From positions 1-23,885 of the IMG/VR virus record IMGVR_UViG_2778261635_000004: a DNA stretch of 23,885 nucleotides, one strand, 5' to 3'. The notes beneath the pieces were generated by a model that worked only from the letters and a program-made list of their open reading frames with translations, was not told the DNA's origin and ran no database searches. Shown piece by piece: positions 2,605 to 14,981 of the stretch. Source of the DNA: a virus (lineage: Duplodnaviria > Heunggongvirae > Uroviricota > Caudoviricetes). The position numbers and the translations under genes were made by a program. The stretch's first letter is position 1, and each line of letters begins with the position of its first letter.

Positions 2605-2950
2605 TCTCTGCTCCTGTTGATACGGAAAAGGAAACAGGCACACCGTTATTACGCCGCCCGGTCAGCTCCACCACCGTTGAACCGTCAAAGTTGCTGTTGA
2701 TGGTGATGGAATCCAGCGTCAGGCGTGGCTCCCAGCGACTCAGCGCCACATACACTGCCGACATGACCTGCAGGCGTAACGCCGGATTTTGTGGCTGGTC
2801 TATCAGTGCCGACAGCAGGGAACCATATTCCCGACGGGCAATGCGGCTACCCTGCGGCGTCAGCAAAATATCCCGCACCGACTGGCGCAGATGGCCAATA
2901 TCAGTAATGGTTTTACCGCTGGTATTATTCATACCGATATAAAGCGTCAT
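2591..2950 (-). CDS. W: Baseplate wedge protein W (gp25-like)
   Basis: 119 aa, size and position match P2 gpW; ATGA overlap with V stop. Confidence 0.8.
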   Translation of the reverse strand: MTLYIGMNNTSGKTITDIGHLRQSVRDILLTPQGSRIARREYGSLLSALIDQPQNPALRLQVMSAVYVALSRWEPRLTLDSITINSNFDGSTVVELTGRRNNGVPVSFSVSTGAENGSD

Positions 2951-3555
2951 ACCGGGCCTCCGGTGGTATCACCGCCTTTCAGGACGCCTGTATGCTGATG
3001 CGTATCAACCACGATTCCGTTAGAACTCATTGCACCGCCGCCCTGGGTAACGCCACCATTGATCACCACTTCGCTGTTAATGCGCGTGCGGTCAGCCTCC
3101 AGTACAAACTCACTGGTTTTCAGGGTGATGTTGTCAGTGGCCTCAATGACCATGGATTTGATGCCCCTGACATACCAGCGCCCGGTGGCGGGTTCGTATT
3201 CAAACCAGCCACCGTCCGGGTATTCCGTCACGTTACCGTCCTCAGAGTCTGAAGGTGGCGGAAACTGGTTTGAGTAGACCGCAGGCAGGGCAAACGCGGT
3301 TTCCAGATTGCCGCCAAGGCTGAACAGCACAACCTGCTCACCCACAGACGGTTTCCACCAGGTGCGCGATTTGCCCGCGCGCAGTGTCAGCCAGTTAATC
3401 CAGTTGGTTTCAAGGTCGCCCGTTTTCACCCGACAAAGCCAGTTTTCCCGGTCCACTTCGGTGACTACACCAGTGCGGATCAGATTGGTGATAAGGCGCA
3501 TGATTTCTGTTAGTTGAGCGTTCATGGCAATTAGATTGCCAAATGCTGCCGTCAT
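2947..3555 (-). CDS. V: Baseplate hub/spike protein V
   Basis: 202 aa; resembles P2 gpV (NLIRTG..., TGGP C-terminus). Alternative start at internal ATG 3525. Weak RBS at both. Confidence 0.8.
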   Translation of the reverse strand: MTAAFGNLIAMNAQLTEIMRLITNLIRTGVVTEVDRENWLCRVKTGDLETNWINWLTLRAGKSRTWWKPSVGEQVVLFSLGGNLETAFALPAVYSNQFPPPSDSEDGNVTEYPDGGWFEYEPATGRWYVRGIKSMVIEATDNITLKTSEFVLEADRTRINSEVVINGGVTQGGGAMSSNGIVVDTHQHTGVLKGGDTTGGPV

Positions 3556-3573
3556 TAGGATAGGATTTAAAGC

Positions 3574-3591
3574 TGTGCCATTTCTGGCACA
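3574..3591 (-). promoter_or_regulatory. Candidate late-promoter activator site (TGT-N12-ACA dyad, Ogr/Delta type) for the V operon
   Basis: tgtgccatttctggcaca is a perfect extended dyad (TTGTGCCA / TGGCACA) lying between the cargo gene stop (3603) and V start. P2 late promoters carry TGT-N12-ACA upstream. Confidence 0.4.
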
Positions 3592-3602
3592 ACTTAGGGA
3601 GA

Positions 3603-4832
3603 TTATTGTGTTAGATCATTAAGTATTGGTGCAATCTCATCGTAAGAGTCGATCCAAATAACATTCACGCCAAATGAATTAGCATCGATTTCTTCAAAAG
3701 TATGCACTGTCTGTAAAAGAGAGGTCGCGATTGCATCCTCATTAATATTCAGTTTATTATCAAATCCATTTCTTGAGTCACTAACAATTCTTTGAATATT
3801 AGCAATCACATCTTCTTTCGAATGTCTACACTTAATTAAATAATGAGGTTTAGAATCATTCCCTCTAAGTTTTTTGGCTGTATCCATCAACCTTCTGAGG
3901 TTTGGATCTGTAAAGGAATGACCAACAAACAGGCAATTTCCATCTTTGAATTTATTCAACTGAACCATATTGCTCCAATGGTATAAATCCATGTATTGCC
4001 TATGATAGCTTTCATCAGAAAGGACTAGCGTGTCATCGAGTTCAACTTTCCCCTGCAATGGGAGATAGCCATGCACATGGTAGATCGGCAGTTCATCATT
4101 TTTTGCATGCTGCCCCGTCTTTGAAATCACCTTATACTTTATACCAACATCAGCTCTAGTTAATGTCTGTTCCAAAATATCATCATAGTTATATGTAATA
4201 ACGGAATCTAGACCTGGTGACTTGCCTGCCGATATGCACAATTTCTTGATTGCTTTCAATGTACTGCTTTCTTCCTCCTGATAATATTCATACAAAACAT
4301 GCTGAATTTCTTTTTCCAAGGGAGTATTAATACCATCAAAGTGTAGTTTTAGATATCTGGCTGCTATGAGTGCGTTCGGACCGAAAACCTCATTAAACAA
4401 AACCGATACCATTTTCTGATTTTCATTTTTATCATCCAAAGCTCTTGCCAATAGCCGCTTTAATAATTCACTCCATGTTGGTATGCTGTAATCTAAAGAA
4501 ATGCCAGCACCTAAAACAAGAACTAAATTCTCCTCTTTAAAAGAGGTCTTCAGGTTCCTCAATACCGTAGTTCTTGTCGCTTGAGAATGGCCCTTTACTT
4601 TTATTTCTAAATTTTTGATAGCATTTGAAGTTAGTTTTTCTATACCACCTGAACGTAGAAAATCCGCGATAATTGCAAAGGTTGATGTTTGAACTGACGT
4701 TGCTGTCGTAGCAACCTCTGCCGCTATGGCCATGGCATCTGCCATAGAGTTCGCTTTTGGTGGTTCAGACTCACTTTTATCTAAATTTGATTTATCAGCT
4801 TTGGGGGACTCATCTTGCTTTTTCATACTCAC
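3603..4832 (-). CDS. SIR2-like (sirtuin-fold, SIR2_2/ThsA-type) stand-alone protein; cargo gene at the S/V junction
   Basis: 409 aa track ORF uses a GTG start; first ATG is at 4826. After a charged N-terminus: LVLVLGAGISLDYSIPTWSELLKRLL (GAGxS Rossmann start), VITYNYDDILE, IYHVHGY, LFVGHSFTDPNLRRL, recalled as the SIR2-like NADase pattern. Markedly AT-rich versus flanking late genes. Confidence 0.6.
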   Translation of the reverse strand: MSMKKQDESPKADKSNLDKSESEPPKANSMADAMAIAAEVATTATSVQTSTFAIIADFLRSGGIEKLTSNAIKNLEIKVKGHSQATRTTVLRNLKTSFKEENLVLVLGAGISLDYSIPTWSELLKRLLARALDDKNENQKMVSVLFNEVFGPNALIAARYLKLHFDGINTPLEKEIQHVLYEYYQEEESSTLKAIKKLCISAGKSPGLDSVITYNYDDILEQTLTRADVGIKYKVISKTGQHAKNDELPIYHVHGYLPLQGKVELDDTLVLSDESYHRQYMDLYHWSNMVQLNKFKDGNCLFVGHSFTDPNLRRLMDTAKKLRGNDSKPHYLIKCRHSKEDVIANIQRIVSDSRNGFDNKLNINEDAIATSLLQTVHTFEEIDANSFGVNVIWIDSYDEIAPILNDLTQ

Positions 4833-4918
4833 CGCTTGTACAAATAGTTATATGTCAAATTAAACATACAGTGTTTAGAAGCATAAAACCTTGTAGAAGC
4901 TAGCAAAAGCGTGAATCT

Positions 4919-5365
4919 TCACCCCATTAAGTAACTAGATAAAATTGTTTTAATTTGAAGAGTAGCTTCATCGTTGAAACCCAATAGCCGCCGCTCAGCA
5001 TAACGTACCTCCGGCCCCTTACGACTAACACGATCACGCAGGCCGTAGTGATGAACGCGGGCAATGCGCTGCACCTTACCTTCAAACTGCACGCTGGCAG
5101 AATCGGCGCTGGCGGCAGTTTTCAGGTATTTTTTGGTGCGCAGCTTTGCAAACATCTGACGTTTGATACGGCCTTTTTTACTGCGTGCTGTTACCCGTCG
5201 CGGTTCATAGCTGCTGCCGTCAGGGTTGCGCTGCATCCTGATATTCTGCTGCTGTGTCCGGCGAAGTTCCTGCGCCAGCTGGCGCATCATGCGGCTTCTC
5301 GAGGCTGGTTCCAGATTCGCCAGCAAGGCACTCAACCAGTCGTCCACCTTCTGCAATTCAGCCAC
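4919..5365 (-). CDS. S: Tail completion protein S
   Basis: 148 aa; position and size match P2 gpS; 8-nt overlap with R. Confidence 0.8.
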   Translation of the reverse strand: MAELQKVDDWLSALLANLEPASRSRMMRQLAQELRRTQQQNIRMQRNPDGSSYEPRRVTARSKKGRIKRQMFAKLRTKKYLKTAASADSASVQFEGKVQRIARVHHYGLRDRVSRKGPEVRYAERRLLGFNDEATLQIKTILSSYLMG

Positions 5366-12258: not shown

Positions 12259-13304
12259 TGAGTGAACAAAACGAGGCCGCAAGTCTGGGGACTATCGATC
12301 CACAGCACCTGCCTGACAAAGCAGCCACAGCCGAAGCATTCAGCTTCGGCGATCCGATCCCGGTGTTAGACCGTCGCGAACTTCTTGACTATGTAGAGTG
12401 CGTACAGATGGATCGCTGGTATGAGCCGCCTGTCAGCTTTGACGGACTGGCGCGGACTTACCGTGCCGCGGTGCACCACAGCTCACCGATTGCCGTAAAG
12501 CGTGACATTCTCAGCAGCACTTACATCCCGCACCGCCTGCTCAGCCAGCAGGCTTTTGCCCGTTTCGTCCAGGACTATCTGGTATTCGGTAACGCCTATC
12601 TGGAAAAACGCACCAACCGGCTCGGCGGCGTTCTCTCACTTGAGCCAGCACTAGCGAAATATACACGGCGTGGAGTGGACCTCGAAACCTACTGGTTTGT
12701 GCAGTATGGTCTGACCACACAGCCATATGAATTTACGCGTGGCAACGTCTTCCATCTGATGGAACCGGATATTAACCAGGAGATTTATGGGTTGCCCGGC
12801 TATCTCTCCGCTATCCCATCAACCCTTCTCAACGAGTCCGCAACGCTATTTCGCCGGAAGTATTACATCAACGGCAGCCATGCTGGCTTCATCATGTACA
12901 TGACTGACGCAGCGCAGAATCAGGAGGATGTGAACAATATCCGCCAGGCAATGAAAAGCGCCAAAGGACCAGGTAATTTTCGCAACCTGTTTATGTACTC
13001 CCCCAACGGGAAAAAAGATGGTATCCAGATCATTCCATTGTCCGAGGTGGCAGCAAAAGATGAATTTCTGAACATCAAGAACGTGAGCCGCGATGACATG
13101 ATGGCAGCGCACCGCGTTCCGCCGCAAATGATGGGAATTATTCCCAACAATACAGGCGGTTTTGGTGATGTAGAAAAAGCCAGTCGCGTATTTGTTCGCA
13201 ATGAGTTAATCCCCTTGCAAAAACGTTTGCAGGAATTAAATGACTGGCTTGGGGAAGCAATAATTACATTTTCACCTTATGAATTGGGTGCAGATGTAAA
13301 ATAA
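12258..13304 (+). CDS. Q: Portal protein Q
   Basis: 348 aa; start overlaps P stop; size and position match P2 gpQ. Confidence 0.9.
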   Translation: MSEQNEAASLGTIDPQHLPDKAATAEAFSFGDPIPVLDRRELLDYVECVQMDRWYEPPVSFDGLARTYRAAVHHSSPIAVKRDILSSTYIPHRLLSQQAFARFVQDYLVFGNAYLEKRTNRLGGVLSLEPALAKYTRRGVDLETYWFVQYGLTTQPYEFTRGNVFHLMEPDINQEIYGLPGYLSAIPSTLLNESATLFRRKYYINGSHAGFIMYMTDAAQNQEDVNNIRQAMKSAKGPGNFRNLFMYSPNGKKDGIQIIPLSEVAAKDEFLNIKNVSRDDMMAAHRVPPQMMGIIPNNTGGFGDVEKASRVFVRNELIPLQKRLQELNDWLGEAIITFSPYELGADVK

Positions 13305-13310
13305 TTGGTT

Positions 13311-14084
13311 CTAGCCTCTATTTTTTCTTCTATCCTCACGCCTTTCTTTTGCCTGAGCAAGGCGTTGAGGTTCAGTATATAAACGTTCCAACAATATATA
13401 AGTGAACTCTTCAAGGTCCTCCGCAGCCGCGTAATCTAAAGCTCCTTCATGCGCGCCATCATTGCCATCATCTTTCACACATTCAGCCAAGTCTCTTAAA
13501 GTCTCTGGCAACCGCTGATTATCAAACAACCAATTCATTCTTAACCCTAAGCTTCGCCGTATTTTTTGATTTGGTTCAGTATCTCCCTTAGGTAATAAGT
13601 CCTTAGTTGCATAATCCAAACATAACCTAAACATAGTTCCTGCTGCGTTATAGCAACCAATAGCTAAACACTTAGAACCTTCTACAAAAGCTTCGTGTAT
13701 ATGCTGAGGCAAAAATTCTGGCGGTTCTCCTGCATCTAAGTCTGCTGGACTAATTGGGCGTTTGACTTTTGCAATATCAGTTAGCTTAAATAAGGCCATG
13801 CCCCAGTTAATGCTGCTAAGATCACGTCCCCGATCTAAGCTATCACAAATATATATCGTTGTTTTCTTACACTCCCTGCATACACAATATACCTCATATT
13901 CGGGTAAATTATCGCCGGAAAATGTTTCATACGTACCGCAGCAGTTTGCCCCTAGAACATCAAATGCTATTTTTTGCGCACCACACCTTGGGCAGTTTTC
14001 CACTAACATAGCCATGCAACAGATATCCTTGAAATGGTGATTATTTGTATGTTCTAAATACCATAATTTCTTACTGACAACCAT
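13311..14084 (-). CDS. Cys-rich zinc-ribbon protein with DUF4145-like C-terminal domain; cargo gene between portal and cos
   Basis: 257 aa; CxxC pairs (CPRCG, CRECKK) plus other Cys in the N-terminal 90 aa; C-terminus LRDLAECVKDDGNDGAHEGALDYAAAEDLEEF resembles the DUF4145 pattern as I recall it. AT-rich; only 6 bp from the Q stop (convergent); start codon about 10 nt from the cos-like sequence. Confidence 0.5.
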   Translation of the reverse strand: MVVSKKLWYLEHTNNHHFKDICCMAMLVENCPRCGAQKIAFDVLGANCCGTYETFSGDNLPEYEVYCVCRECKKTTIYICDSLDRGRDLSSINWGMALFKLTDIAKVKRPISPADLDAGEPPEFLPQHIHEAFVEGSKCLAIGCYNAAGTMFRLCLDYATKDLLPKGDTEPNQKIRRSLGLRMNWLFDNQRLPETLRDLAECVKDDGNDGAHEGALDYAAAEDLEEFTYILLERLYTEPQRLAQAKERREDRRKNRG

Positions 14085-14093
14085 GAGCGCGCG

Positions 14094-14112
14094 CTCGTAT
14101 CCCCGCCACGCC
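14094..14112. other. cos-like cohesive-end site
   Basis: Reverse complement reads GGCGTGGCGGGGATACGAG, close to the 19-nt cohesive ends I recall for P2 (GGCGAGGCGGGGAAAGCAC) and 186 (GGCGTGGCGGGGAAAGCAT); next to the portal end of the map as expected. Confidence 0.45.
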
Positions 14113-14121
14113 TGCCCGCTT

Positions 14122-14238
14122 TATGCAGTGGTTTTCATGCACATGCATGACATGAGCAAAAGCCCGCCAGTTCTGGCGGATCTGAGCAAAGACGATCCTC
14201 AATCGATCATGCGATTTCATGCAGCATAGTCATGCACT
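14122..14238. repeat. Cluster of (T)CATGCA hexamer repeats plus a 16-bp palindrome (ccgccag tt ctggcgg, about 14164..14179) flanked by GAGCAAA direct repeats
   Basis: CATGCA or near-copies at about 14122, 14136, 14142, 14208, 14218, 14232; palindrome and flanking repeats read directly from the sequence. Confidence 0.5.
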
Positions 14239-14491
14239 GTCAAGGAAGTGAAAATCCGTATCTGAATGGCCACTTGAAAAACGGATCATACGGGTTTACA
14301 AAGATGAATGTTCGCTGTGAACGGGAAGCGGAAGTTAACTTTCAGATAACATAATCCATATGCACGAGAACCTCTAAAATAGAATGGGACACCTAAGCGG
14401 GGTACTTACAACGATTCTTTCCATATTCACAGTTAACACTCTGTTTGGCGTATTTTTATTCAAATAGCAAACACCAATAAAAGGAGTTTCC

Positions 14492-14827
14492 ATGAACAAT
14501 ATTCCCCCTATACCACAGTTAGGAATTTATGTCTCAAAAATCGATCCCACCCTACGTATCACTGTAACCGATGTTGATATTGTTGATGGTGAGGATGATT
14601 CTCCTGATGATGAATTGTTTTATTTAGTCCACTGGATCGAGGGGGAAGATGAAAGTGATATGACAGCAATGGGATTTGAGCTAGACCCATTAGAGTGGCA
14701 GGCTTTCGTTGAATCTGAGCAATTAGTGTTTGAGCGTGATCCGTACATGGATTCAATCCCCGAAAATTCAAACTTGGCAAAGATTCGGGATTTTCTCATG
14801 AAGACTAAACAGAATGATCATTCGTAA
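14492..14827 (+). CDS. Small, highly acidic hypothetical protein (Asp/Glu-rich), cargo gene
   Basis: 111 aa with strong RBS (aaaggag 7 nt before ATG); D/E runs (DGEDDSPDDE, EGEDESD); AT-rich. Confidence 0.65.
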   Translation: MNNIPPIPQLGIYVSKIDPTLRITVTDVDIVDGEDDSPDDELFYLVHWIEGEDESDMTAMGFELDPLEWQAFVESEQLVFERDPYMDSIPENSNLAKIRDFLMKTKQNDHS

Positions 14828-14981
14828 GTGTAAGCATCCATCAGGAAAATGGTTTTGTAAGTGAATCATCAACTTTTAGAGAGTCTCAGACACTCCCACT
14901 TCTGCTTCTGACACAAAGCGGACGATCACTTATCAAAATAACCGCCCACCTTACGCCTTATTTCACTCATTGCCCAAACTA

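Follow-up and report, generated by a model that had tools for sequence, protein, structure and literature searches.

What does a single AT-rich gene do between two conserved tail genes of a P2-like prophage, and could it act as a defence by itself? We address this for a SIR2-like gene in a 23,885-nucleotide stretch of DNA, here called the window. The prophage is of the P2/186 type, resides in E. coli and is integrated between ybjL and rcdA. The part that holds the gene (window 3400-5000, 1.6 kb queried) is 100% identical to E. coli strains E41 and GPEC1222.

The original prediction placed the gene at 3603-4832 on the minus strand. A gene is indeed present there, and the reading frame gives 409 aa when read from the GTG at 4832, as in the ORF listing, but the start needs revision. 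The GTG, which adds two codons, is probably not the real start: the ATG at 4826 is used in RefSeq and in all homologs and gives a protein of 407 aa. The coding sequence is accordingly 3603-4826 (minus strand, 407 codons and a stop), annotated as "SIR2 family protein" (WP_050491431.1). No other ORF of at least 50 aa overlaps it on either strand, and Rfam finds zero RNA families across the whole window.

The composition of the gene deviates clearly from its surroundings. Its GC is 0.37 and its GC3 0.32, against a GC of 0.53-0.56 and a GC3 of 0.56-0.63 in the neighbours S, V and R; the expectation of an AT-rich region is therefore correct, and the difference from flanks of about 0.55 marks the gene as foreign cargo. 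No informative direct or inverted repeats were found around the cassette. The cargo is rare: among 5,426 complete E. coli genomes four carry the window allele and four more an allele of 75% identity, and in 50,697 sequenced phage records a tblastn search finds the gene absent, with one weak match only. In one of the latter, E. coli EC05 (locus L003, 4205-6610), an ISKpn26 element splits the SIR2 allele in a rearranged prophage, an example of cargo inactivation.

The slot that holds the cargo can be defined precisely. Its left boundary is gpS, the tail completion protein (4919-5365, minus strand; Pfam Phage_tail_S). Beyond the other end lies gpV, the baseplate spike (2947-3525, minus strand; Pfam Phage_base_V and Apex), which is the first gene of the V late operon. 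Between the cargo and V sits the dyad of the pV late promoter, recognised by Ogr/Delta-type activators (3574-3591, minus strand). It has the form TGT-N12-ACA, reads TGTGCCAgaaaTGGCACA, starts 11 nt past the SIR2 stop (3603) and is centred 57.5 nt ahead of the V ATG (3525). Every SIR2 allele, and also a TIR-carrying prophage, has this dyad behind the stop of the cargo, and the slot therefore runs exactly from the S stop to the pV dyad. That the late-promoter dyad would be preserved between the SIR2 gene and V had been foreseen, and it is conserved in the related prophages as well. In P2 the annotated order is S, the O-operon terminator, orf30 (antisense), the pV activator site and V. The proposed equivalence with the position of P2 orf30 is thus right for the slot but not for the orientation: orf30 and its DUF6216 relatives are antisense, whereas the SIR2 gene of the window is co-directional with S and V.

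The content of the slot varies. With the SIR2-deleted backbone as query, 1,065 of the 5,426 complete E. coli genomes were matched, and 50 full-length junctions spread over the ranks were sampled. The slot is empty in 26 of the 50. This is the commonest E. coli state (CFT073 type), with an S-V gap of 68 nt in which the dyad TTGTATCAGCACTGATACAA lies 3 nt after the S stop and the V ATG about 45 nt further. An antisense DUF6216 gene, in the slot of P2 orf30, occupies seven junctions, and unannotated hypothetical proteins fill 12, about a quarter. SIR2 is found in two junctions, and AIPR, TIR and PcfJ proteins in one each; an FRG protein sits in the slot of one partial match outside this sample. 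Some occupants resemble known defence proteins. Strain S88 carries a 566-aa antisense AIPR protein with a match to AbiU at 2e-24 (L093, 1565-3265), and 20Y000092 a different, 506-aa antisense SIR2 protein whose SIR2 domain is N-terminal and which matches the PDC-S25 and ThsA models (L091, 1525-3045). In AH02 a 266-aa sense TIR protein has weak matches to SpbK and PDC-S66 (L092, 1503-2303).

Cargo of deviant composition between conserved core genes, variable among relatives, is what characterises an accessory hotspot, and this is the pattern at S/V. The junction acts as a hotspot for cargo, and several of its annotated occupants are of defence type. In this it resembles the "moron" loci of P2 (orf30 at S/V, old/tin and Z/fun), which are likewise AT-rich, exchangeable cargo in a conserved backbone. 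Named hotspots of P2-like phages include gpA/Q (PMC9122126), Z/fun (PMC9519451) and the tail/CI locus (bioRxiv 10.1101/2024.10.15.618418), and minor ones have been placed "within the tail genes/downstream of GpL" (PMC13586616). In the literature searched the S/V junction is not named explicitly as a hotspot. Cargo that consists of a single-domain SIR2 or of ThsA only has been mentioned before for P2/P4 hotspots (PMC9122126, PMC13586616), a point not raised in the original prediction.

A second candidate lies elsewhere in the prophage. At the gpA/portal (old/tin) hotspot, in an AT-rich region at about 13000-14900, a gene at 13311-14015 (minus strand) encodes a DUF4145 protein that PADLOC matches weakly to PD-T7-4 (E=5e-6). 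PD-T7-4 is a single-gene system; here a DinI-like gene and small hypothetical genes come after the DUF4145 gene. Together with the SIR2 gene, the prophage may hold two candidate defence cargos.

Next, we studied the protein itself. Its assignment to the SIR2 fold had been proposed from short motifs, all of which are present: GAGIS at aa 106, NYDD at 213, HVHG at 250 and FVGHSFTDP at 300. The profile comparison that had been suggested against SIR2_2, ThsA and DSR families agrees. Pfam SIR2_2 (PF13289) scores 73.1 bits against a cutoff of 24.5 (E=3.2e-20), and the top PADLOC models are LmuA-SIR2 (9e-21) and ThsA1 (2e-20, over aa 85-408). The models for DSR1, SIR2-HerA and pAgo-SIR2 score far below these two. 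A profile built from 38 homologs matches ThsA (6LHX, 2.6e-10), KomC and human FAM118B in the PDB. The alignment with 6LHX begins at the GAG loop, takes in the Asn and His motifs and reaches the end of the SIR2 domain with its last strand and helix, which means that the 407-aa protein has no extra C-terminal domain; profile searches and the fold likewise give no SLOG, Macro or other domain there. No transmembrane segment is found in the protein.

The predicted structure divides the protein in two. In the AlphaFold2 model the SIR2 core, from about aa 84 to 407, has a pLDDT of about 85, while the N-terminus (about aa 1-83) is below 50. Foldseek ranks BcThsA, SeThsA, DSR2 and KomC highest for this model, all with a probability of 1.00, and superposition of the AF2 model on KomC by Foldseek gives a TM-score of 0.85 (normalised to KomC) and an rmsd of 2.8 Å. 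From profile and fold, codons 86-407 (3606-4571, minus strand) form an immune-type SIR2 domain (SIR2_2, or "SIRim") that runs to the C-terminus. The protein belongs to the SIRim branch of the SIR2 superfamily, a clade that holds all validated bacterial antiphage SIR2 proteins (bioRxiv 10.1101/2024.09.18.613514). Codons 1-85 (4572-4826, minus strand) are a fast-evolving extension of low allele identity. As anticipated, it is charged and of low complexity (43% of aa 1-30 are K, R, D or E), and residues 1 to about 85 are modelled as disordered. Prediction of the terminal extensions, which had also been proposed as a check, thus leaves about 85 low-confidence residues at the N-terminus.

The residues expected in an NADase of this type are conserved. 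All 38 diverse homologs keep G106, G108, S110, N213 and H252 unchanged. The first three belong to the GAGIS loop of the NAD-binding Rossmann fold, located by the homolog alignment at aa 106-110 (4497-4511, minus strand). Asn213 of NYDD (codon 4188-4190, minus strand) aligns with the Asn of TTNYD in ThsA in the 6LHX profile alignment, and His252 of HVHG (codon 4071-4073, minus strand) with the His of YKMHG. The protein contains just three scattered cysteines and therefore has no sirtuin Zn ribbon.

The two parts also differ in their evolution. Between alleles the N-terminal 85-90 aa or so are 25-51% identical, compared with 79-92% in the core, and dN/dS is about 0.4 in the N-terminus and 0.03 in the core for one allele pair, synonymous sites being saturated in most others. 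At the level of codon substitutions, the SIR2 core is under strong purifying selection. The alleles are synonymously saturated against each other, while the flanking backbone is about 92% identical, and it follows that the cassette has been exchanged and did not diverge in place.

The family is large, with 467 clusters at 50% identity (E<=1e-30, exhaustive phmmer against 1.84 billion representatives). Among the best 150 representatives the SIR2 core is C-terminal wherever the protein looks complete. The N-terminal extension in this set varies from almost none, through about 100 aa as in the 407-aa protein and about 140-195 aa, to rare long fusions; in the long forms of the family LRR-Roc-COR-A/B or Mrr_N domains precede the core. 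Six relatives of about 500 aa (P0183, P0195, P0209, P0215, P0223 and P0232) have an N-terminal module of about 180 aa with an invariant D51...E68-x-K70. By eye this pattern suggested a PD-(D/E)xK nuclease; Pfam and PDB profile searches gave no support for it.

SIR2 effectors often have partners, and the lack of one had been claimed for this gene. Locally the claim is right: the neighbours are the structural genes gpS and gpV. It also extends to the family. In 83 homolog loci (80 from different species and three others), where flanking ORFs within ±4 kb were clustered by all-vs-all blastp, no neighbour family occurs in more than six loci, and those that recur are paralogs of two-component systems. 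Further, Pfam and PADLOC annotation of the 146 largest adjacent ORFs gives no family in more than three, and TIR, HerA and SLOG are absent. The genes downstream of the Vibrio and Shewanella homologs were considered as a shared partner and are unrelated to each other. Most distant homologs in the 83 loci have housekeeping genes as neighbours and do not lie in defence islands, which the original prediction did not consider.

Closer relatives have a more uniform context. Enterobacterial alleles of 70-77% identity are always in P2-like prophages, in the order S, SIR2, V and in the sense orientation. An intact SIR2 gene is also present in a decayed P2-like remnant of Enterobacter, seen in 20 contigs. 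The remnant (L094-L096, e.g. GCA_015208395.1) consists of a gpA fragment, an FRG-domain protein, a portal fragment, gpS, SIR2, a gpV fragment and ybjL; that the accessory genes outlast the phage suggests domestication. A V. cholerae homolog of 52% identity (L004-L006, 6001-7245) lies at the distal end of a filamentous prophage with Rep_trans and Zot and is followed by an unrelated 269-aa ORF; an immune-type SIR2 is unusual as inovirus cargo. In Priestia the homolog is beside GmrSD in an integrase island.

The literature searched holds no experimental report on the stand-alone SIR2 family. Two apparent matches concern, or probably concern, other systems: a paper on NAD depletion in V. cholerae deals with SIR2-HerA (Nezha), and the "Sir2 homologue" of Vassallo is probably the two-gene PD-T7-2, whose second protein is compared to HerA, with the system unnamed in the main text.

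Taken together, homology and context lead us, with moderate confidence, to read the gene as a horizontally acquired one-gene cargo of the S/V slot that encodes a minimal, self-contained SIRim NADase, an NAD+-depleting effector of abortive infection. NADase activity, a defence phenotype, a trigger and expression in the lysogen are what we infer on this basis. The SIR2 protein would be kept inactive in the lysogen until a competing phage infects and a trigger is sensed by the protein itself. Sensing could use the fast-evolving N-terminal tail of about 85 aa, an induced assembly of the ThsA-like core into oligomers or filaments, or both. NAD+ hydrolysis dependent on Asn213 and His252 would then cause metabolic collapse and abort the infection, which would protect the lysogen population and the prophage with it. 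It should be kept in mind that the tail is predicted to be disordered and that many members of the family lack it, so its role may be that of a linker and not of a sensor. The housekeeping neighbours of most distant homologs, the rarity of the gene in E. coli and its absence from the sequenced phage records also count against this reading.

The orientation of the gene, which the original prediction did not raise, points to a different possibility, one that we consider rather unlikely. The gene is in sense, directly behind the late O operon, and shares the direction of S and V in all enterobacterial alleles examined. The 92 nt of spacer that separate the gpS stop from the SIR2 ATG (4827-4918, minus strand) contain no sigma-70 consensus match of at least 9/12, no intrinsic terminator and no conserved RNA hairpin, whereas P2 has a terminator after S and an antisense orf30. 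The best lenient promoter match in the spacer, TTGCTA-15-TATGCT, is not conserved. Given a spacer with neither promoter-like nor terminator-like sites, read-through from the late O operon is possible, and the gene may be transcribed only as the tail of that operon, which would be odd for a gene that protects a lysogen. SIR2 would then be an accessory gene of the late operon, made only once P2 late transcription is on and acting in the lytic programme instead of as a constitutive sensor in the lysogen. Induction of its own prophage, or Ogr/Delta from a superinfecting P2-like phage or a P4 satellite, would be the switch, and its role could be exclusion, a tripwire against satellites or modification of host metabolism. 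However, the family is widespread outside phages as an isolated gene, and a sense-oriented TIR cargo occupies the same slot. The Enterobacter remnant retains SIR2 with the upstream late operon largely deleted, which argues for a native promoter; the sigma-70 consensus scan is insensitive in AT-rich DNA, and a weak native promoter could lie in the spacer. A weak additional point for late-operon expression is that in three variants the ribosome-binding region of SIR2 has a GUGA with which a UUCAC just past the stop of gpS can pair (window 4827-4921, minus strand, and the L094 and L097 spacers). A part for this pairing in translational coupling or occlusion is a guess, most of the z-scores being insignificant. 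In Enterobacter the spacer further contains a perfect 12-bp palindrome, GCTAACTTAAAC/GTTTAAGTTAGC.

The absence of a linked partner can be turned around as well. Characterised SIR2 effectors (ThsA, KomC, SIR2-HerA, SIR2-APAZ and LmuA) use partners or fused sensor domains (PMC11559045), and the present protein might be an orphan effector, inert alone, whose activity depends on a partner or host factor encoded elsewhere, for example a signal-generating enzyme or a scaffold. We find this improbable. The 83 loci have no recurrent neighbour, the protein has no SLOG or Macro domain to bind a ligand, and it is found as a single-gene cassette in a P2 slot, in a filamentous phage and in islands of very different hosts; a cassette that moves alone among such hosts argues against a specific host-encoded partner. 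Still more improbable, in our view, is a protein that does not deplete NAD for immunity and is instead a deacylase, an ADP-ribosyltransferase or a counter-defence enzyme that degrades NAD-derived signals to serve the phage. In its favour, the SIR2 superfamily has a versatile chemistry, the gene lies on a phage and may be expressed late, and the SIRim relative of eukaryotes has reportedly moved away from strong NADase activity (bioRxiv 10.1101/2024.09.18.613514). Against this, the match is to SIR2_2 and not to the classical sirtuin profiles, the Zn ribbon is missing and the nearest structures are all NADase defence effectors.

The reading as a self-contained NADase effector can be taken further, to a proposal that we put forward as speculative and regard as doubtful. 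The protein would be the smallest SIR2 immune protein that suffices by itself, with a ThsA-like NADase core and no sensor domain. Its phage specificity would lie in the disordered, rapidly evolving N-terminal tail of about 85 aa, or the "sensor" would be transcriptional coupling to the P2 late operon, a tripwire against satellites and superinfecting phages; P2-like phages would have at S/V a defence hotspot that has gone unrecognised and is specialised in minimal NADase and Abi cargo of one gene.

Should the gene protect by itself, it would represent a minimal architecture of SIR2 immunity that does without SLOG, HerA, APAZ and a large sensor, and a tractable system to study how a bare SIR2 core stays off and is switched on. 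The S/V junction would then be added to the defence hotspots already known in P2-like prophages. Of the E. coli prophages of this type that were sampled, about half have S/V cargo, mostly unannotated, which invites guilt-by-association mining. Further, the family is large and taxonomically broad, and a result would annotate many genes now called "SIR2 family protein".

Finally, the protein can be compared with the known SIR2 and TIR defences. The SIR2 core of type I ThsA (BcThsA 6LHX/8BTO, SeThsA 7UXT) is the best match in both sequence and fold; by analogy NAD+ hydrolysis is likely the common chemistry, and activation through higher-order assembly is a reasonable model. However, ThsA continues into a C-terminal SLOG (type I) or Macro (type II) domain, whereas the 407-aa protein has neither, ends inside SIR2, carries an added N-terminal tail and is 18-20% identical; the ThsA1 profile is matched over positions 4-275 of 478 only. 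Thoeris also has an adjacent TIR protein, ThsB, and none is present at the window or in the 146 adjacent ORFs. KomC, the SIR2 NADase of Kongming (8ZSF/9XVC), is likewise a small stand-alone SIR2-domain protein of very similar fold, but it acts with KomA, KomB and a dITP signal, and neither KomA nor KomB is linked to the SIR2 gene of the window.

DSR1 and DSR2, each a SIR2 defence encoded by one gene, recognise a phage protein directly and have a similar SIR2 fold. They are, in contrast, about 1000-1300 aa long with an N-terminal SIR2 domain and a large C-terminal sensor, whereas the window protein has 407 aa with SIR2 at the C-terminus, and the NCBIfam Dsr1 model gives it 29.6 bits against a cutoff of 1400. 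SIR2-HerA (Nezha) has an adjacent HerA, which is found neither at the window nor among the neighbours of the homologs. As for Lamassu, the LmuA profile is matched over 4-236 of 433 only and there is no local SMC-like LmuB. As a defining domain or partner is missing in each case, the gene is not Thoeris, DSR, Nezha, Lamassu or Kongming. By analogy with these five systems, however, the 407-aa protein most plausibly works as they do, by triggered depletion of NAD+. A parallel exists in the single-protein short TIR systems of E. coli (TIR-V and TIR-IX), which also consist of one short NADase-type effector with a divergent N-terminus and sense portal proteins, their N-termini being different (PMC11350192); their effector is a TIR where the window protein is a SIR2, and the S/V slot of AH02 holds a TIR protein.
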